Source: an uncultured Oscillospiraceae bacterium (GTDB lineage Bacteria > Bacillota > Clostridia > Oscillospirales > Oscillospiraceae). From it: a stretch of DNA of 32,000 nt. The translations under genes were made by a program, and so were the position numbers. Location: contig CANQYW010000001.1 of the NCBI GenBank assembly GCA_947628185.1, positions 182,489-214,488 of the forward strand. Reading direction: 5' to 3'. Position 1 is the stretch's first letter. Each line of letters begins with the position of its first letter. Positions 5,018 to 32,000 of this stretch are shown here, in pieces. Under the pieces are notes generated by a model. That model worked only from the letters and a program-made list of their open reading frames with translations. It did no database searches and was not told the DNA's origin.

Positions 5018-6152
5018 ACATATCCGCCGCTTTTTCGATGTCCTCCCGGAGGACGATGGTGAGGTCCCGGCGCTCCGGGTGATCCTGTGCCGCCACACGG
5101 TCGGCCTGGACGGATATCATGTTCTCAAAGAGGTTCCGTACATCCCTGGCGTTGCCGAAATTCTCTCCCCGGGACTCGTAGATGTGCCGCAAGTAGCGTT
5201 TCGCGAAGACCTGGGCCTCCACGGAGAGCCGGTAGCTGTTTTTTTCGCACATGGAGAGGAGTATCTTAAAGAGCTCATCGCCGTCGTAGTCCTCAAAGAG
5301 GAAGTAGCGGTTAAAGCGCGACTCGAGTCCCGGGTTGGAGGAGATGAACTTCTCCATGAGCTCCTCATACCCCGCCACTATGACCACCAGGTCGTCCCGG
5401 TTGTCCTCCATGGCCTTGAGGAGCGTCTCTATGGCCTCCTTGCCGAAGTCGTTGTCCCCGCCGGTGGAGGTGAGGGAGTACGCCTCGTCCACAAAGAGCA
5501 CCCCGCCGATGGCGCGTTTCACCGCCTCGTCGGTCTTTATGGCCGTCTGGCCCACGAACCCCGCCACGAGCCCGGAGCGGTCCACCTCCACGAGCTGTCC
5601 CTTGGAGAGGACGCCTATGGCGTAGTAGAGCTTTGCTATGAGCCGCGCCACGGTGGTCTTGCCCGTGCCGGGATTCCCCATGAACACAAGGTGCAGAGAC
5701 ATGGCGGGCGTGGGCAGATCGTGCTCCTCCCGCAGTTTCCGTATCTTGGCAAGATTAATGAGGCTCCGCACGTTCTTCTTTATCTCGTCGAGGCCCACAA
5801 GGCCGTCGAGCTCCTTTAGGAGTTCACCCAGGTCCGGCCTCTCCGGCGCTTTCTCCGCCTCAGTCTTGGGGGCGTCGGAGCTTATGGCCTGCTCCTTGGC
5901 CTCCATCTCCTTTAATAGCTCGTCCGCCGCCTTCTTCGCCTCATCCATGGAGGTCTTGAGCTCCTCCACGTCGTCCCGGGCGCCGCTCTCCTTCTCCGTT
6001 CTCGTCTCTTTCGGGGGACTTCCGAGCCCGGAGAGGGCGCTCCCCAGTTCGTCCCGGAGTCTGCGTATGTCGTCAAGGTACGCCCCGGCGGGCCTCAGTC
6101 CAAAGCCGTTAAAATCTATATTGAGTCCGTAGCCCTTCTGCTTTTTCGCCAT
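5016..6152 (-). CDS. spoVK: AAA+ ATPase of the SpoVK/CbxX family (stage V sporulation protein K-like)
   Basis: Walker A GNPGTGKT and Walker B VLFVDEAYSL, with a CbxX-type C-terminal region. The N-terminal 120 aa are acidic and coiled-coil-like. Confidence 0.75.
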   Translation of the reverse strand: MAKKQKGYGLNIDFNGFGLRPAGAYLDDIRRLRDELGSALSGLGSPPKETRTEKESGARDDVEELKTSMDEAKKAADELLKEMEAKEQAISSDAPKTEAEKAPERPDLGELLKELDGLVGLDEIKKNVRSLINLAKIRKLREEHDLPTPAMSLHLVFMGNPGTGKTTVARLIAKLYYAIGVLSKGQLVEVDRSGLVAGFVGQTAIKTDEAVKRAIGGVLFVDEAYSLTSTGGDNDFGKEAIETLLKAMEDNRDDLVVIVAGYEELMEKFISSNPGLESRFNRYFLFEDYDGDELFKILLSMCEKNSYRLSVEAQVFAKRYLRHIYESRGENFGNARDVRNLFENMISVQADRVAAQDHPERRDLTIVLREDIEKAADM

Positions 6153-20500: not shown

Positions 20501-20731
20501 ATGCAAGTTACCGCTACCGAATTCAAGCTGAACCTTGGCAAGTACCTGGAGCTCGTTCTGGCGGAGGACATCTGGATCACCAAAAATGGAAAAACCGTAG
20601 CTAAGCTCATTAACCCGAACATCTCCGCCGTTGACGCCATTTCCGGCGTCCTAGCCGGGAAGGTGCCCGCTGACCTCGACCGTCACGCTCTACGTGAAGA
20701 AAGGCTGTCAAAGTATGCGCTTGATGATTGA
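20501..20731 (+). CDS. Type II antitoxin, Phd/YefM-like
   Basis: 76 aa. The N-terminus VTATEFKLNLGKYLELV...IWITKNGKTVAKLI is typical of Phd/YefM antitoxins. Its stop overlaps the start region of the PIN gene. Confidence 0.75.
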   Translation: MQVTATEFKLNLGKYLELVLAEDIWITKNGKTVAKLINPNISAVDAISGVLAGKVPADLDRHALREERLSKYALDD

Positions 20732-21134
20732 CACGAACATCATCCTGGATGTCCTTATCCGCAGGGAGAATTTCTACGGCAACTCCAAAGCCGTCCTGTC
20801 CCTCTGCGAAGACCGCACTATCCAGGGGCTCGTGCCCGCCTCCGCCGTCACGGATATCTTCTATATCACCCGAAAAGCTCTCGGAAACACAGAGGACACC
20901 TACAGGGTAATTAGTTCGATCCTGAACATCGTCCGTATCCTGACAGTCACCAACGATGACGTCCTGAACGCATTCCAGGTCAAGGCAAAGGATTTTGAAG
21001 ACTGTCTGATGGCGACCTGTGCCAAATCCAACAAGTGCGACGGCATCGTCACACGGAACAAGAAGGATTTCCTGACCTTTGGCGTCACCCTTTATTCACC
21101 TGAGGAACTGCTGCAGCTCTTCGAGGAAACGTAA
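20715..21134 (+). CDS. PIN-domain ribonuclease toxin (VapC-like)
   Basis: MRLMIDTNIILDVL... (first PIN acidic motif) and C-terminal DCLMATCAKSNKCDGIVTRNKKDF. Start at ATG 20715 (alternative 20724) overlaps the antitoxin 3' end. Confidence 0.8.
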   Translation: MRLMIDTNIILDVLIRRENFYGNSKAVLSLCEDRTIQGLVPASAVTDIFYITRKALGNTEDTYRVISSILNIVRILTVTNDDVLNAFQVKAKDFEDCLMATCAKSNKCDGIVTRNKKDFLTFGVTLYSPEELLQLFEET

Positions 21135-21181
21135 GCTGTGCCCACTTTTGCGGCAGCCATACTAACACAAACCAATAATAC

Positions 21182-21213
21182 GAGCCGGGAAGTCAAATCC
21201 CGGCTCATTCTTT
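21182..21213 (+). terminator. Rho-independent terminator after the TA pair
   Basis: 9-bp stem GAGCCGGGA (21182-21190) / TCCCGGCTC (21198-21206), 7-nt loop, ATTCTTT tail. Confidence 0.7.
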
Positions 21214-21255
21214 AGTACACGACTGTAGTTTCTATAAAAAACCTTAATCAAATAC

Positions 21256-21283
21256 TTGACAATACTTTTAGCTGTATTATAAT
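21256..21283 (+). promoter_or_regulatory. Consensus sigma-A type promoter
   Basis: Exact TTGACA (21256-21261), 16-nt spacer, exact TATAAT (21278-21283), about 44 nt upstream of ATG 21327. Confidence 0.6.
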
Positions 21284-21326
21284 AACATTAATTACAATAA
21301 ATTATAAAATTTTGGAGGTGTCTACC

Positions 21327-21692
21327 ATGTTCCCAGAACATATCCCAGCGTTTGACTGTCTCGATATTCCCAGTGAGAGGCACAAGGGACGCAGATACAT
21401 AGACTATGCTGTGGCCCTGATACTCGAAGATCCGAATAAACTGCACAATGTCACAAAAGGCCTCTATGCGGAGATTGCAGAGCACTTTGGGACTACACCG
21501 GGTCGTGTGGAGCATGGTATGCGCAATGTATGCCATGCGGTGTGGAATAATAGCTCCGAACTGCTGAAAGAATGGGCCGTCTATCCTCTGAATGAGAGAC
21601 CGTGTGTGACGCGACTCCTATCCATTCTTGTGTTTCATATTAAGCAGGATGACGCGGAATTTCAGGCTCTATTATGCCAGATTCGGAGGTAA
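21327..21692 (+). CDS. Stand-alone Spo0A C-terminal (Spo0A_C-like) DNA-binding domain protein, copy 1
   Basis: By eye, ...YIDYAVALILEDPNKLHNVTKGLYAEIAEHFGTTPGRVEHGMRNVCHAVW... aligns with the Bacillus Spo0A effector domain (...[50 protein letters not shown]...). No receiver domain. ATG 21327 follows GGAGG at 21314-21318. Confidence 0.7.
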   Translation: MFPEHIPAFDCLDIPSERHKGRRYIDYAVALILEDPNKLHNVTKGLYAEIAEHFGTTPGRVEHGMRNVCHAVWNNSSELLKEWAVYPLNERPCVTRLLSILVFHIKQDDAEFQALLCQIRR

Positions 21693-22104: not shown

Positions 22105-22706
22105 TTAGTCACAGAGTTTCTCGTTAAACAGTTCATAGTAGTTATCCTCATTTGCATATCTAAGATAATATCGAGTTGCATGATCTTTATGAATAATAAC
22201 ACCAGGATTCCCAACAACGATCGAATGAGACGGAATATCAAAATTAACATAAGCATTAGGGGCTATAAGAACATCATTTCCGATGTTGATATTCCCAACC
22301 ACCATTGCATTCATGCCTATCCAAACACAATTTCCTATAGTTGGGCAACCCTTTCTTTTACCACGGTTTTCCTGACCAACGGTACATCCTTTATGTAAAC
22401 TAACGCAGTTCCCTAAAATTGCCTGCGAGTTCACAGTAATCCCAAAAGCATGTCCTAAATACAAATATTTACCAATATTGGCCGTGTAGAGATCAAAACC
22501 ATATTTCTTCCCAATCACCCTAGACAGAACATGATATATCTTGGATATGATACCTTTGGAAGAATTCGACTTTCTTTGAAGAAATAAATATCTTAGTGAT
22601 GGTTCCTTAACAAAAGCCTTTACCCCCCCCCCAATTTATTTTTCTCAATTTTCTGTCCGTATTCAAATCTATACTGATGGTAATCATATTTGAAATAGCT
22701 TTTCAT
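22105..22706 (-). pseudogene. Hexapeptide-repeat (CysE/WcaB-like) polysaccharide O-acetyltransferase, frame interrupted at a G10 tract
   Basis: ATG 22706 (RBS GGAGG) opens a 28-codon frame ending in TAA immediately after the G10 run. One extra G (or two fewer) joins it to the 22105-22518 ORF. The joined product reads ...KNKLGGGVKAFVKEPSLRYLFLQRKS...VIGKKYGFDLY... plus left-handed beta-helix repeats. Confidence 0.75.
22623..22632 (-). repeat. Homopolymer tract, G10 on the coding (minus) strand
   Basis: Ten consecutive C on the + strand, counted directly. Confidence 0.95.
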
Positions 22707-26435: not shown

Positions 26436-28340
26436 TTATCCCTTATTAAACCGGCGTTTCAGTATAAAATAGATGCGCTCATAGGGCAGGGGCAATTTTA
26501 TAAGGCGTTTCATAAAGCCTATCTTCCACATGCTGGATATAAAATCTCCCTTGAGCCGCCCCGGGTCTCTCAAGTATTCCCGGAGTTTTGCGGGGCGGGC
26601 GATAAGCATTATCAAATTGTCAAACACCCTGAAGTCGCCCCACAAATTTGCCTGCCAGAGGGTGGGGCTGAGACACATGTCCGTGAAGTTATACCAAGCG
26701 GCGTCCGGCGGGATGGGTGGGAGCCCGCCCGGGAATGACGCGGCCAAGTCCCTCACGAACTCCAGCGCGCCGCTCTGGTACTCCCGCATTATAGATATCT
26801 CGTCACAGCACTTTCCATCGCGGCTCTCGTACTCGAAGTCATACATCACCGGCGCGGGTCTCCCGTCCACCTTGACGAAACGCTTGACGGAGCCGTGCTG
26901 ACCTAAGAAGATCGACTCAAAGATCGGCACGAAACAGCTGAGCTTATTCACGAACTCCTCGTTCTTGCCCCGCTCGTGGAGATAGCCCGAGGCCCGGATG
27001 ACGCCATTGTTCACCAGCGGCGCGTCGGGTGAGACGCCCACATAGTACCCCCGCACCTCGATGCCGAGACCGGACTCGCGTATGAGCTCCTGGAGGCCGT
27101 TCTGCATCGTCCCGTGGCGGCCTATGTCCACCACCGCTATGCGCTCCGCCATATGGAGGGAGGAGATATACTCCAAAAGCGCGTCGTACTCGTCTTTGGA
27201 GTTCTCCACCACCAGATCGCGGACGGAGTCATAGAACTTGGACACCCTATCTGAGGTCTTAAATGTCCCGTGCTCAAAAACCTCGTCCAAATCTACCCCG
27301 CAGGCGGCGGCGCGGTCCCGGCAGTCCTCCGGCTCCAGGCCCAGCCTCAGTATGAATGTGCGGAGGGTCATCCGGTCCTGGAGGGTTATATTCTTGAATA
27401 TCTCATGGAGCTCCGGGTGTTTCCAGATGAGGGGCACGGTGTAAGACCGGCGGGAACAGTAGAGGTAGTGGGTGGAGAACCCCTCCCCGTACACCGCGTC
27501 AAAAGCCTGTTTCATGGTGTAACCGTCCCGGGACATGAAATATACGTCCCTGATGCCGTCCCCCTCCAGCCGCCGCGCCAGCCACTGGGTGAAACCCGCT
27601 AAGAGCGGGCCGAAGGTTTTAGCGCCCAAGCTGGCGTATGTACCCATCCCGGGGGACACGTTCTCTATAGCGGCGGCGAGAGTGCGGTAAATGAGGGCGC
27701 TCTGGGGCGCCAGCCCCTTCGGGACGGCGCAGAGCTCCTTCCTGGCGCCGGGTACGCGCCGCGCGTGTATCCCCATGGAGCGCGGGATGAGAAAGTCGCT
27801 CTTTCTGTTGTCCCCAAAGTGCGCGAGCTCTCCGGCGGAGATGCCAAGGTCCTTCAATACCGCCCGGTAGAGGGATCCGTCGGCCTTCGTGCGTGACTCC
27901 TCGCAGGAGACGTAGAGCCGCTTATAGCCCCGGACGCCGCACTTCTCCAGCATCTTCCCGATGAACGACGAGGGGAGGTACATGTCCGATATTAGCACCA
28001 CCGTCCGGCCCTCCTCCAGGCAGCGGTCAAAAAGGCCCACATACTCAGGATCAGGCCGGCAGCCCATGAGCTCAAAGCTCAGTTCCCTCTCCATGAGCTC
28101 CCCCGCCGGGGCACCAAGCTGAGAGCCAAGTTCGGCGTAAATATCCGCAATCGTGACAGGCGTTCTGGACTTCGCCGCGGCGGCCCTCTCCGCCACGATA
28201 CGCAGCTCGGCAAACCCCGCCGGGACGTCCCCGCAGCAGTGCTCCATCATGCGGAAGATGTCCGTGGGTCTCGCGACGCTGCGTTTGATGAGGGTGTCGA
28301 AGACATCAAAGGAGACGTATGTCTGCTTAATTTTTTGCAT
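26436..28340 (-). CDS. HAD-superfamily hydrolase domain protein with a large uncharacterised C-terminal region (COG5610-like, recalled)
   Basis: HAD motif I FDVFDTLIKR, motif II LISD, and motif III/IV K...GDNRKSD in the first 200 aa. The remaining 430 aa are unassigned. Confidence 0.55.
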   Translation of the reverse strand: MQKIKQTYVSFDVFDTLIKRSVARPTDIFRMMEHCCGDVPAGFAELRIVAERAAAAKSRTPVTIADIYAELGSQLGAPAGELMERELSFELMGCRPDPEYVGLFDRCLEEGRTVVLISDMYLPSSFIGKMLEKCGVRGYKRLYVSCEESRTKADGSLYRAVLKDLGISAGELAHFGDNRKSDFLIPRSMGIHARRVPGARKELCAVPKGLAPQSALIYRTLAAAIENVSPGMGTYASLGAKTFGPLLAGFTQWLARRLEGDGIRDVYFMSRDGYTMKQAFDAVYGEGFSTHYLYCSRRSYTVPLIWKHPELHEIFKNITLQDRMTLRTFILRLGLEPEDCRDRAAACGVDLDEVFEHGTFKTSDRVSKFYDSVRDLVVENSKDEYDALLEYISSLHMAERIAVVDIGRHGTMQNGLQELIRESGLGIEVRGYYVGVSPDAPLVNNGVIRASGYLHERGKNEEFVNKLSCFVPIFESIFLGQHGSVKRFVKVDGRPAPVMYDFEYESRDGKCCDEISIMREYQSGALEFVRDLAASFPGGLPPIPPDAAWYNFTDMCLSPTLWQANLWGDFRVFDNLIMLIARPAKLREYLRDPGRLKGDFISSMWKIGFMKRLIKLPLPYERIYFILKRRFNKG

Positions 28341-29649
28341 AGGCTTGCGGCCTCCTCTTCACTGGTACTATGCGAAATCTGATTTGTTTTTCCACAACAA
28401 GTTTGTAAAGTATGTAGGTGATCATGATTTTGAATACAAAACCAAAAGATACGATGTTGGAATAGAAGAAGTTATTATACATATACAGAATGGCACAATA
28501 ATAAATTTGGCAGAAAATAATAATAGGAAGATTACTCCGTTTCTTTTTTGTGTACTCATAGAAAACCGAGTATATAAGCGAGAATAAAGCGTGAAGAACG
28601 AAAACGCCAATCATTCCAAAGTCGTAATGGTAATCACGTAACGCCGTATATATGTTCCCTGTACTTACACCGGCAACAGACCTAAACTCCTTATGGAAAA
28701 TATAACTTTCTATATCAACGATTCCCACACGTCTAAGTGCGTTGAGTAGGGAATAAAACGTTTCTTTTCCCCAGATATCTGACTTCATAGGCGGGTTATT
28801 CAAATAAAGGTCAAGGTTGACAACGCCTGTTCCCATGTAATGCGCCGTATAATCGAGAAGTGTAGCATCGCTCACGCGGCCCACAAATTCCTTTACAAAA
28901 TAAAAAAACCACGCCGCGACAACCACAATCAGCATTACACGCATAAGAAAGCCAAATTTATAAGTTTTATACTTTCCCAAGCGTTGAATGCGTGTCATGT
29001 GGAACAGAAAGATACCGGCAATTATGTTTGACAGTATAGAAAACCGCCCACTGGTAAGCAAACTGGACAGGACTGTAAGGGCCAAAAACACAACCTGTAA
29101 AATTATTTCACGGACCTTGAACGAGCGGAAGAACTTGATCAGGTTGAACATATACAAAATACATAATGCCTGCAACAGATTCATCGTCAGCCGCAGCCAC
29201 AACGGGTACTGCGCGTCCACATCGGTGGAATATCCATGCGCGTTTCGATAGGAGGTCATGATCTGCCCGAACATTCCCGATGTTCCCGCCACGCGAGTGA
29301 TCTCCCGCAGCTGAGCGATAATCACAACAACCGCCACGAGCAGCGCAAAAAATGTAAAGCCTTTTGGAATTGGGCTTGACTTGTCCTGCACAGGACGGAT
29401 CCGAATATGCTGAAACGCGCTGCGACAGAACATCCCAATAACCACGCTCAGCGTCATGCACGAACCAATGAGCACGGTCGTCTGTAAGCTAAAAGAATAG
29501 TCGAGGTCAAACAGGATATAGATACTCAAACTGCACGCAAAAATAAAACCGAGAATCATCATCGTGGACGGTGCGAAGAAGTCCCGCCCGGTCAGGTAAT
29601 AGCTGATGTAAAAGAGCGCGATCAGCCATATAAATAAAACTATCTGCAA
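28327..29649 (-). CDS. wzy: Oligosaccharide repeat-unit polymerase (Wzy-like)
   Basis: 440 aa, about 10-12 TM, very AT-rich, no soluble domain, placed between glycosyltransferases and wzx. TTG start after GGAAGGTGGG. Confidence 0.65.
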   Translation of the reverse strand: MQIVLFIWLIALFYISYYLTGRDFFAPSTMMILGFIFACSLSIYILFDLDYSFSLQTTVLIGSCMTLSVVIGMFCRSAFQHIRIRPVQDKSSPIPKGFTFFALLVAVVVIIAQLREITRVAGTSGMFGQIMTSYRNAHGYSTDVDAQYPLWLRLTMNLLQALCILYMFNLIKFFRSFKVREIILQVVFLALTVLSSLLTSGRFSILSNIIAGIFLFHMTRIQRLGKYKTYKFGFLMRVMLIVVVAAWFFYFVKEFVGRVSDATLLDYTAHYMGTGVVNLDLYLNNPPMKSDIWGKETFYSLLNALRRVGIVDIESYIFHKEFRSVAGVSTGNIYTALRDYHYDFGMIGVFVLHALFSLIYSVFYEYTKKKRSNLPIIIFCQIYYCAILYMYNNFFYSNIVSFGFVFKIMITYILYKLVVEKQIRFRIVPVKRRPQAYAKN

Positions 29650-29677: not shown

Positions 29678-30217
29678 TTATCCCCTGGCAAACGCCCTAT
29701 AAAACCCATCCCGTTTCGCGTCCAAGCGGTCTTTGCGGAACCTTTGGGCCTCCGCGAAATTCCGACGAGCTACGCGGAGCCGCAGGTCCGGCTCCAGCAT
29801 CTTCCGCAAAATATCCGCCAACTTCCGGTAGTCCCCTCTCGGGAACAAAAACTCCCGCTCGATTAGCTCGTAATTCCCGCCCACGTCGCAGGCGGCCACG
29901 GGACACGCCCGGCTCATGGCCTCCACTATCGAGCGGCAGAGGCCCTCGCTGAGGCTCGGGTGGACGTAGACGTCTATCCCGTCGTACCACTCAAAGGTCC
30001 TGTCGTGGGGCAGCAGGCCCAGGAGTTTCACCTGGTCCTCCACGCCCAGACGCCGGGATATATCCTCTATCCGCCCGGGGTCCCCGCCGCCGATGATCTG
30101 ATACTCTATCCCCGTAATGCCCTCGTCCTTCAGCTCTTTTATCGCCCTAATGACGGTCTCGTGGCCCTTGAACTTTAAATTCACATGGGCCGCCGTCCCG
30201 ATTATCAACTTGCTCAT
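29678..30217 (-). CDS. Free-standing GT4 (GT-B fold) C-terminal half-domain protein
   Basis: MSKLIIGTAAHVNLKFKGHETVIRAI...EGLCRSIVEAM (EX7E motif) is a paralog of the C-terminal half of the upstream GT4. ATG 30217 has RBS GAGGAAGG 5 nt upstream; the alternative ATG 30244 overlaps the upstream stop. No N-terminal Rossmann half is encoded. Confidence 0.7.
   Translation of the reverse strand: MSKLIIGTAAHVNLKFKGHETVIRAIKELKDEGITGIEYQIIGGGDPGRIEDISRRLGVEDQVKLLGLLPHDRTFEWYDGIDVYVHPSLSEGLCRSIVEAMSRACPVAACDVGGNYELIEREFLFPRGDYRKLADILRKMLEPDLRLRVARRNFAEAQRFRKDRLDAKRDGFYRAFARG
29894..29937 (-). repeat. 44-nt perfect direct repeat, copy 1 (EX7E-coding segment)
   Basis: CACGCCCGGCTCATGGCCTCCACTATCGAGCGGCAGAGGCCCTC is identical to 30467-30510. 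Confidence 0.9.
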
Positions 30218-30466
30218 AAAAACCTTCCTCAAATCGTATATCATGACCTCATATAGAGGTTGTAGAATTCATCCCGCTTGCGGTCAAGGACCGTCTTCTG
30301 GTACTTGTGGGCGCGCTCAAAGTTAAGTTTCGCGCTCCGGGCCTGCTCATCTTTCTCCATCATCCGCTTTATGCTCCCGGCGAGCCCATTTATATCGCCG
30401 GCCCTAAAGAGGCAGTCGGAGTGGACGAGCTCGTAGTTCCCGCCCACGTCGCTGGCGATCACGGGG

Positions 30467-30510
30467 CACGCCCGGCTCATGGCCTCCACTATCGAGCGGC
30501 AGAGGCCCTC
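30467..30510 (-). repeat. 44-nt perfect direct repeat, copy 2 (EX7E-coding segment)
   Basis: Identical to 29894-29937; the flanking ~115 nt are also far more similar than the rest of the paralogs. Confidence 0.9.
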
Positions 30511-30777
30511 CTGGTAGCTCGGCTGGACGTAGACGTCCACGGTATCCATCCACTGGGCCACCTGCTCGTGGGGCAGCGCCCCGATGATATGTACCTGGTC
30601 CTCGACACCCATCCGCCTACTCACACTTCTCAAATATTCGCCGGTCCCGATCCCGATGAGGTGATACTCGATGTTCGTGATCCCCTCCCGTTTCAGCCGG
30701 GCGAGGGCCTTTATGACGGTGTCCTGGCCTTTCCAGCGCACATCCAACAGCGCGGCCGTGCCTATGATTAGCTTATA

Positions 30778-30786
30778 CCCCCCCCC
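30778..30786 (-). repeat. Homopolymer tract, G9 on the coding (minus) strand
   Basis: Nine consecutive C on the + strand, counted directly. Confidence 0.95.
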
Positions 30787-31490
30787 GCGATTTTCTTCAG
30801 CCGGTTCTCCAGGATCTCGCTGTCCATATCATCCAGTTCCACATCGGAGCAGCCTATTGAGAGCCCACCGCATGGGTAGCGCTTTTGCAGGGCCTCGTCC
30901 GTCACGTACACGGCGTAGGGCACGTCCTTTAACACGCGGCGGCACTTCAATTCCCTCGGTCCCGCCACCAGCTTGCCCCGCAGGCTGTGGTACCAGAGGC
31001 CCTCCCAGGCGAACCCGGTGACCTCCACCAGGTAGACCTTGCGGTATTTCCGGGCGTACTTCAGGGCCGTACTCGTGTACACGTTGCCGACGGAGCGGAT
31101 GATCACCCGGTCCGCTTTCCTCACTTCCCGCTCTATCGTGCTGTCGATCTGGCGCCGGTACGCCAAGTTCAGGCAGTTCGCCGCCGGACGGTAGATGTCA
31201 GGCAGCGCCACCAGCGCGGAGCGGCGGGCGTCGTAGAAATTGAATCTCTCCGCCGCCTCCTGGGGGTCGTATATCCTCTGTTCACGCCTGAGAATGACCG
31301 TCAAATGGTCGCAATAGCTCCTGTAGCGTTCCCAGATATGCTCGTTGAAGTTGCTGTCGGTGTAGGCGTTCCCCTCCGTGTCGAATTTCCACCGGGACCC
31401 GCCCTGGATGAATAGCAGATTCATGCGGCAATACCTCCGGTAATGGTACTGCGGCATGAAACCGCCTGGGTGTACGGTAAATATACGAAT

Positions 31491-32000
31491 TCAAGTTCGT
31501 ATATTACCCCCCCCCGCCCCGAATTTCTTGGCGGTGTACTTCGTCTGGATCACTTTATATATCCTCCCCGCGTTGTAGGCGAAACGCATACCGAGGTATG
31601 TACACCTCGCCCCGTAAAGATTCTTCGCCCTGAGTTCCGGGGACTTGTCCCGGGCCACCACGTCGCGGTATTTAAGCAGCGAATCCCAGACCTTCTCCAG
31701 GGAGTCCGTGTCCTCCGGCGGGATTTGGATGAACACCTGGTAATTCACCGAGAAGGCCCTGGCGTAGGCGGCATCTTTAAGCGTCTCGTCATAAGCCATG
31801 ATATCCCCGACGACCCTCTCGCCCACCTTGACGCATATGAGTTTCGCCGGGGTGAACTTCATATGCACTATGCTGTCCGCGCGGACACGGTAGGCGTATG
31901 TGCGGCACTCCAGGAGCGCGATTTTTTCCGCGCGCATGAAGGCGCGGTGGGTGGTGGCGGCGTCCTCAAAGAGCCAGCCCGTTGGGAAACGCAGTCCATC
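31491..32000 (-). CDS. GT2 family glycosyltransferase, C-terminal part (partial, 5' end beyond the window)
   Basis: The frame is open to the window edge (...DGLRFPTGWLFEDAATTHRAFMRAEKIALLE...), typical of the region after the GT-A catalytic core. It ends ...KKFGAGGGNIRT*. Confidence 0.65.
   Translation of the reverse strand, partial: DGLRFPTGWLFEDAATTHRAFMRAEKIALLECRTYAYRVRADSIVHMKFTPAKLICVKVGERVVGDIMAYDETLKDAAYARAFSVNYQVFIQIPPEDTDSLEKVWDSLLKYRDVVARDKSPELRAKNLYGARCTYLGMRFAYNAGRIYKVIQTKYTAKKFGAGGGNIRT
31507..31515 (-). repeat. Homopolymer tract, G9 (then C, then G4) on the coding (minus) strand
   Basis: Nine consecutive C on the + strand, followed by G and CCCC, counted directly. Confidence 0.95.

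Follow-up and report, generated by a model that had tools for sequence, protein, structure and literature searches.

Poly-G and poly-C tracts control a well-known set of phase-variable glycosyltransferases, among them lgtA, lgtC, lgtG and the pgl genes of Neisseria, cgtA and wlaN of Campylobacter, and fut of Helicobacter. Phase-variable glycosyltransferases have so far been understood as on/off switches. Enzymes of the GT-B fold can also be divided between two polypeptides, as in bacterial pairs of the Cps14F/Cps14G or EpsE/EpsF type, and in split GT-B enzymes the C-terminal helix of the donor subunit mediates docking. The phase-variable glycosyltransferases of mucosal bacteria are treated in reviews (for example, PMC11475388), and ALG13/ALG14 is a natural split GT-B enzyme (PMC9527342). 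Here we describe a glycosyltransferase locus in a 32,000-nt stretch of DNA, hereafter the window, from an uncultured Oscillospiraceae bacterium (NCBI GenBank assembly GCA_947628185.1, contig CANQYW010000001.1, forward-strand positions 182,489 to 214,488). A GT4 gene in this locus carries a poly-G tract between its two domains and is followed by a second, free-standing copy of its C-terminal half; we call the three parts the N-half, C1 and C2. The arrangement is real, conserved and unusual. Judging from related loci, it is most likely a two-state switch, and we give a probability of roughly 45% to the full reading, in which the three parts form one module and the N-half of the OFF state assembles in trans with C2.

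As sequenced, the GT4 N-terminal, acceptor-side domain forms an open reading frame (ORF) of its own (30768..31424, minus strand) that ends KKIAGGGIS*, three codons past the tract, and is 66-71% identical to the N-halves of loci L001-L008. Its likely start is the ATG at 31424 (MNLLFIQGG), with GGAGG ahead of it; an alternative ATG lies upstream at 31457 (ORF 30768-31457). The poly-G contingency tract (30778..30786, minus strand; C9 on the plus strand) encodes the GGG of the interdomain linker and is G9, the OFF length, as sequenced. With G10, the ON length, the frame continues ...IAGGGYKLIIGTAALLDVRWKGQ... (YKLIIGTAA...YMRS*) through C1, the C-terminal nucleotide-sugar donor domain (30241..30777, minus strand), to a TGA at 30241-30243. 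The earlier note had called this GT4 gene frameshift-prone, and that description holds: G9 splits the ORF and G10 restores a product of 394 aa. This product has more than 100 homologs of 392-405 aa (50-67% identity, 98-100% coverage), and because it matches the full-length family in this way, the fused form represents the ancestral gene. Of the other frames, G9 stops after 3 codons and G8 after 1 codon. C1 is translated only with the tract in frame, and neither a Shine-Dalgarno sequence nor an ATG was found after the tract to start it separately. As the reading frames predict, slippage in the tract gives the gene two possible products: N-C1 as a single-chain enzyme, or an N domain that is cut off cleanly and carries no more than 3 additional residues, C1 then going untranslated.

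Both the fused protein and C2 are recognized by the same Pfam families. Fused N-C1 scores 88.1 bits against PF13692 and 85.6 bits against PF00534, and C2 scores 81.8 and 76.6 bits (cut-offs, 27 and 26.4). In an AlphaFold2 (AF2) model of fused N-C1, with a predicted local distance difference test (pLDDT) of 94.6 and a predicted template modeling score (pTM) of 0.88, the N part is a Rossmann-type domain (residues 1-214), and the tract-encoded glycines 215-217 sit in a four-residue loop between N-domain helix 202-214 and C-domain strand 219-224. Foldseek aligned the model over both domains with MshA, BshA, PglA, PimA and HepE (template modeling scores of 0.6-0.67, probability 1.00). On the strength of this model, we assign the fused protein to the retaining-type GT4 enzymes with a predicted GT-B fold. 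No NCBIfam equivalog reached its cut-off (the best was EpsE, at 69 bits versus 400), and a sequence search of the PDB returned remote C-domain relatives only, so donor specificity is not readable from a close template.

Directly downstream of C1 lies C2 (29678..30217, minus strand), a free-standing donor-domain paralog of 179 aa. Its ATG is at 30217, it begins 2 residues ahead of the domain's first beta-strand, and a Shine-Dalgarno-like GAGGAAGG (30223..30230, minus strand) stands 5 nt upstream. By BLASTP, C1 and C2 are identical at 96/177 positions (54%) in a gapless alignment with E = 6e-71, far beyond chance, in which MSKLIIGTAA of C2 falls opposite YKLIIGTAA of C1. The E-x7-E motif (EGLCRSIVE) is present in both, and its two glutamates are invariant in 61 family members. 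From the letters alone, the earlier note had proposed a C-half copy immediately downstream with its own ribosome-binding site, starting at the residues that follow the tract in C1, about half identical to C1 and retaining EX7E; each of these points is borne out. C2 also keeps 26/27 of the family columns conserved at 95% or more, as does C1, including L, R, F, Y and F of the C-terminal helix, where C2 carries the motif LDxKRDxFYxxF. A simple scan found no sigma-70-like promoter or intrinsic terminator inside N-C1-C2.

The earlier note also suggested a survey of related genomes for the same N, C1 and C2 order, and the order does recur, together with the linker tract. Searching with C2 returned two free-standing orthologs, both of 181 aa (P0122, 71% identical; P0123, 64%), and the N / poly-G / C1 / C2 module was found in two unrelated low-GC metagenome organisms, one represented by L005 and L006 (36% GC) and the other by L007 (40% GC). 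The tract lies at the same linker position in each, as an in-frame G9 in L005, a G7 in L006 and an out-of-frame G10 in L007. L005 encodes a 395-aa GT4 (ON) and then C2; L006 is the L005 DNA with N (215 aa) and C1 separated (OFF); and L007 has N (219 aa), an intact out-of-frame C1, and then C2. In all three lineages C2 has its own Shine-Dalgarno sequence and an ATG at the domain boundary, the counterparts of the window's ribosome-binding sequence being AAGAAAGG in L005 and AAGAGG in L007. We had considered an in-frame ATG at 30244, which overlaps the C1 stop as ATGA, as the conserved start of C2 and rejected it, as it has no equivalent in L005 or L007. In L007, C1 and C2 are separated by a 206-nt non-coding spacer (1867-2072), likewise free of promoter and terminator candidates in the simple scan, that contains a G8 tract (1976-1983); the spacer could act as an additional signal, modulated by its tract, for expression of C2 and the genes downstream of it.

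These relatives also document switching. L005 and L006 come from sister samples and have 0 mismatches over 2102 nt, the sole difference between them being G9 (ON) versus G7 (OFF). A third allele of the L005 strain (P0337) ends MRGGVTN and is OFF, and its C2 (P0340) is intact. Variation in tract length within an otherwise identical background is thereby documented for the module. In the window, L005/L006 and L007 loci alike, both wrong frames stop 0-3 codons from the tract, so every OFF length yields a complete, almost tail-free N domain. The conserved position is what gives the tract its weight: the G9 run by itself is unexceptional in a window of 58% GC (1.6 matches expected; at least 4 in 11% of shuffles), and composition predicts 0.01-0.02 such runs per locus in the low-GC relatives (0.010 and 0.019 for runs of 9 or more).

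That G9 runs are not rare in this GC-rich window, that homopolymers are error-prone, and that other short C-half ORFs (P0146, P0152) are plain fragments of broken genes would all fit a simpler account, in which C2 was left behind by a partial tandem duplication and the frameshift comes from a pseudogenizing mutation or a homopolymer assembly error. We regard this account as extremely unlikely. The same G9 occurs in three independent assemblies of the window strain (the window, L010 and one X3 contig), the 2-nt tract change is all that separates L005 from L006, and in four assemblies with an OFF tract the C1 that follows it is still intact and selected. C2 itself has stayed intact across a shift from 36% to 60% GC. 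Between L005 and L007, nonsynonymous divergence (dN) of C2 is 0.19 and synonymous divergence (dS) 1.9, for a dN/dS of 0.10; the values for C1 are 0.19, 1.85 and 0.10. The earlier note had named decay of C2 in related genomes as evidence against its proposal, and what we find in three divergent lineages is an intact gene of 179-181 aa under this level of constraint.

The one decayed copy that we did find shows what such decay looks like. P0001, the closest full-length homolog, is encoded in L008, a metagenome-assembled genome, and has the linker CGAGGAGGGGGCAAT, in which the tract is interrupted and the gene locked ON. Directly downstream is a C2 pseudogene with an in-frame stop and the changes G7R, W77R and R95S at family-invariant positions, truncated at codon 113 by a different downstream gene set. 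Measured against the L007 C2, its overall dN/dS is 0.23, like that of C1, which indicates that the decay is recent. In the next relatives (P0002; L001-L004), both the tract and C2 are absent. Over the five lineages, then, a mutable linker tract and an intact C2 are either both present or both missing, the pattern that exchange between two donor domains predicts.

The module has also been passed on as a whole. In every one of the three loci, C1 and C2 differ by a dN of 0.46-0.51, which points to an old duplication whose copies have been diverging together. A tree of 170 C-halves places the three C2 sequences in one clade and the C1 sequences of tract-bearing loci in another, with the same branching order. 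By these sequence measures, C2 is best described as a working gene, consistently diverged from C1 and selected as strongly as C1.

How far C1 and C2 have diverged bears on what C2 might do. One possibility is that the N-half and C2 do assemble in trans and use the same donor as C1, C2 being a fail-safe and the tract a dimmer of one activity. The catalytic and family-invariant residues are all common to C1 and C2, and a Wzx/Wzy pathway would tolerate a changed amount of product more easily than a changed repeat unit. However, the two copies have been about 50% different throughout the history of the module (dN of ~0.5), whereas a pure back-up would be expected to stay C1-like or be lost. C2 further carries invariant substitutions at pocket-motif positions that are otherwise conserved in the family, namely F/L to H11, V to T74, QPS to HPS (H86) and S to C110. 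These C2-specific changes suggest an altered specificity, and we consider a same-donor back-up unlikely.

The surroundings of C2 raise another possibility, that it is a functional stand-alone protein independent of the tract, which binds or hydrolyzes a nucleotide sugar, modulates the full-length enzyme or pairs elsewhere, and that the tract is an ordinary ON/OFF switch of N-C1. C2 carries separate start signals, a Shine-Dalgarno sequence and an ATG, and evolves under purifying selection, and isolated GT-B C-domains can fold alone, as in the Pyrococcus abyssi GlgA C-domain chains and 3qhp. In L005 and L007, the 3' end of C2 overlaps the start of a second full-length GT4 gene, which makes other partners conceivable. 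That second GT4 is absent from the window, however, where a Wzy gene follows C2 directly, and a GT-B C-domain alone would be without the acceptor site and half of the catalytic cleft. C2 was found only beside N-C1 genes that bear the tract, and it has decayed where the tract is gone. The cross-over helix of GT-B enzymes packs on the N domain, and C2 retains the residues of this helix. A separate N-half partner for C2, which the earlier note had listed as a finding that would speak against its proposal, was not seen in the window part of the locus or in related contigs of 10-12 kb. We consider a stand-alone role for C2 doubtful, yet it keeps some weight.

A third possibility arises from a local similarity between the copies. 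A 44-nt stretch of C1 (30467..30510, minus strand; codons EGLCRSIVEAMSRAC) is exactly identical to C2 (29904..29947, minus strand). It is the longest run shared by C1 and C2 in the window, and their identity here is ~90% over roughly 100 nt; the longest runs in L005 and L007 are 11 nt and 14 nt. The 44-nt identity is probably a gene-conversion patch, to judge from its sequence. C2 could then be a cassette that donates sequence to C1 by homologous recombination or gene conversion, so that mosaic C-domains arise as they do in pilS/pilE. Logan contigs do join C1 and C2 across the 44 nt, with one skipping 563 nt (X5) and one going back 563 nt (X4). Against this, both types of joint occur at 2-3x depth, across a repeat that exceeds the assembler word length of about 31 nt, and unrecombined contigs are present in the same or sister runs. 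Low-depth joints in both senses alongside unrecombined contigs are more simply read as an assembly artifact, and the hybrid contigs are probably just that. The long identity is confined to the window lineage, L005 and L007 having no such stretch, and silent cassettes need no conserved Shine-Dalgarno sequence and ATG, both of which C2 has in all three lineages. A recombination cassette is accordingly a very unlikely explanation of C2.

We return to a two-state switch with assembly in trans as the preferred reading. None of the comparative checks that the earlier note had set as possible refutations went against its proposal. In this mechanism, slippage of the poly-G tract, in the loop between the two Rossmann domains of a GT4 enzyme, would set the reading frame, while translation of C2, an old paralog, would start from a separate ribosome-binding site. 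With the tract OFF, the released N domain would dock C2 in trans via the conserved C-terminal cross-over helix, and the resulting N-C2 complex would rebuild a GT-B enzyme with a different donor domain. Tract length would then toggle the polysaccharide repeat unit between two structures rather than abolish a step of its synthesis. The more specific claim, that the linker repeat is a domain-exchange switch in which ON ties the acceptor domain to C1 and OFF recruits C2, reversibly changing the sugar added, we advance tentatively, as a possibility somewhat short of even. We infer both the assembly of N with C2 and the change of donor sugar. By analogy, assembly in trans is plausible, given natural split GT-B enzymes and engineered GT-B heterodimers. 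Bretagne et al. 2024 (PMC10937113) found that a GT-B N domain severed at the linker can be purified together with either its native C domain or a foreign one, and that the complexes are active with an altered substrate range. In the same study, one of two N domains gave no purifiable dimers, and assembly in trans is thus not guaranteed.

Several observations weigh against this reading. Modeled as a single chain, N-C2 reaches an AF2 pLDDT of 94.1 and a pTM of 0.88, equal to N-C1; the comparison is non-discriminating because the same alignment drives both predictions, and it shows only that there is no obvious incompatibility. The OFF state leaves ~530 nt of untranslated C1 mRNA ahead of C2, so polarity could lower C2 expression. 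The reading also requires a Wzy polymerase and a Wzx flippase that take either repeat unit. The locus extends past the window end, and an N-half partner for C2 may lie upstream. The module is present in three lineages only, too few for co-occurrence statistics, and the link between loss of the tract and decay of C2 rests on one lineage, in which truncation by downstream gene replacement could be the sole cause. Finally, the window strain, covered by the window, L010 and low-depth Logan contigs (2-6x), shows only G9, and switching is shown in the L005 strain instead.

The module is very rare, being present in three lineages. C2-specific peptide patterns had no match in 185,579 GTDB species genomes and, in JGI metagenomes, only an unrelated 25% match. 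A DNA pattern of the tract followed by GTAA..LDV.WKG likewise had no match in the collection of 185,579 species genomes, and neither a profile search of 5.8 billion proteins nor an exhaustive HMMER search of 1.84 billion representatives found further members of the C2 clade. Two candidates for a parallel case were rejected: P0146, a short C-half ORF whose gene is broken elsewhere, and P0152, which has a T5/T4 frameshift at the domain boundary and no second C-half. P0152 is a more distant family member found in four metagenome samples (L012-L015), with overlapping N (221 aa) and C (182 aa) ORFs. The frame is broken at a T5 run, where T4 would restore it, at the first strand of the C domain and with an ATG right there. 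P0152 is either a pseudogene in which the frameshift is fixed or a GT4 that is split by nature.

A further variant concerns the window strain itself. Its second assembly, L010 (ENA ERZ27249285, 997 bp), carries G9 and is missing ~41-45 nt equivalent to window 30231-30271. The loss takes the last 11 C1 codons and the spacer, so that C1 ends ...RKRGRFL* and overlaps the C2 start. At 1.7x coverage, this deletion is either a real variant or an assembly error.

The GT4 gene and C2 belong to the 3' part of a Wzx/Wzy-type polysaccharide locus, and in their region every gene is on the minus strand. Upstream of the GT4 gene stands a GT2-like gene (minus strand) that is cut off by the end of the window, and the GT4 gene and then C2 (minus strand) lie between it and a Wzy-type oligosaccharide repeat-unit polymerase (28327..29649, minus strand; NCBIfam TIGR04370, 127.6 bits, cut-off 40) directly 3' of C2. 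After the polymerase, on the same minus strand, Pfam matches identify a 634-aa HAD-like protein, a Wzx flippase, a nucleoside-hydrolase-like protein, Glf (UDP-galactopyranose mutase) and a phase-variable hexapeptide acetyltransferase. The remainder of the window encodes the Firmicute housekeeping proteins DnaB, TilS, HPRT and FtsH as well as a Spo0A_C-domain protein, and the host is a spore-forming gut Firmicute; the public runs that contain the sequence carry the label rabbit gut metagenome, and none of them is an RNA run. Just past the 3' end of the polysaccharide locus (20694-21692, plus strand) are a 146-aa PIN_3-domain protein and a 126-aa protein that consists of the Spo0A C-terminal DNA-binding domain alone.

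Composition varies along the locus. The Wzy polymerase gene (28327-29649) has 43% GC and the acetyltransferase gene (22105-22705) 36%, compared with ~60% in the parts of the GT4 gene and elsewhere in the window, a mosaic that indicates cassette exchange within the locus. The acetyltransferase gene, at 36% GC in a 60% GC genome, suggests a recent import.

Poly-G tracts are found elsewhere in these loci: the glycan locus of the window has three in all, and those of L005 and L007 have two to four. The hexapeptide-repeat acetyltransferase gene (22105-22705, minus strand) is split after codon 27 by a G10 at 22623-22632 (MKSYF...KNKLGGG*). Its homologs also carry poly-G, as a G8 at 9687-9694 in L005 (73% identical) and as a frame break at a G9 (5280-5288) in L007, which makes it a second phase-variable gene common to the three loci. 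A third tract in the window, a G9 within G4CG9 (31507-31515, minus strand), is located in the upstream GT2-like gene, four codons short of its stop (...KKFGAGGGNIRT*), and 31-64 nt ahead of the GT4 start. A change in its length would either alter only the tail of the GT2-like protein or extend its ORF over the GT4 start. The flanks of this tract (AAGAAATTCGGGGC-G9-TAATATA) are similar to those of the linker tract (AAGAAAATCGC-G9-TATAAGC).

If the preferred reading, with domain exchange, is true, the module would represent a new route to phase variation of glycans with two states in place of on and off, and no GT4 enzyme would previously have been known to be split naturally and conditionally. 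It would give a compact means of alternating between two surface glycans, which matters for escape from recognition by phages, antibodies and lectins in the gut. Nature would thereby also have supplied proof that GT4 domains can serve as interchangeable subunits, of the kind now built by hand by glyco-engineers (PMC10937113). Independently of that reading, gut Firmicutes use clusters of poly-G contingency tracts in their polysaccharide loci, a feature mostly documented in Neisseria, Haemophilus, Campylobacter and Helicobacter.

Set beside known systems, the module resembles the phase-variable glycosyltransferases of Neisseria, Campylobacter and Helicobacter in having a homopolymer inside the ORF of a surface-glycan glycosyltransferase, a reversible frame shift and several tracts per locus. 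In those systems, however, the OFF state means that the enzyme is lost and that the glycan is truncated or an alternative acceptor exposed, whereas here the tract falls in the interdomain linker, the N domain made in the OFF state is complete, and a spare donor domain under selection is encoded alongside. The hosts differ as well, being gut Firmicutes here and Proteobacteria or Campylobacterota there. In type I restriction systems, poly-G truncation of HsdS switches specificity in NgoAV. In concept, the nearest parallels are HsdS truncation and gene-altering inversions (PMC9881135; PMC10028968), where a programmed, reversible DNA change provides an enzyme complex with another specificity module and does not turn the complex off. 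The enzymes differ, and inversion systems depend on a recombinase and inverted repeats; in our module, the choice between a covalent and a non-covalent partner would fall to a simple repeat. Our search of the literature found no description of repeat-controlled exchange of glycosyltransferase domains.

With split GT-B pairs the module shares the separation of acceptor-side and donor-side Rossmann domains into polypeptides, which form one active site in those pairs and would do so here; in the sequenced OFF state, the N-half and C2 are indeed separate ORFs. Those pairs are permanently split and belong to the GT28/GT1-related Alg13 and Alg14 families (Pfam PF04101 and PF08660). Our module is instead GT4 (PF00534, PF13692), its split is conditional on the tract, and one N domain has two alternative donor domains. 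The Pfam scan lists PF13692, PF00534 and PF20706 only, with no match to PF08660 (Alg14) or PF04101 (Glyco_tran_28_C). As the Pfam families differ, the module is not a member of the Alg13/Alg14 group, and the resemblance is one of mode of action, by analogy and not homology. The heterodimers of PMC10937113 are artificial, were made from plant GT1 enzymes and have no genetic switch. By analogy, the module may be described as a poly-G contingency locus joined to a split GT-B enzyme of the Alg13/Alg14 type.

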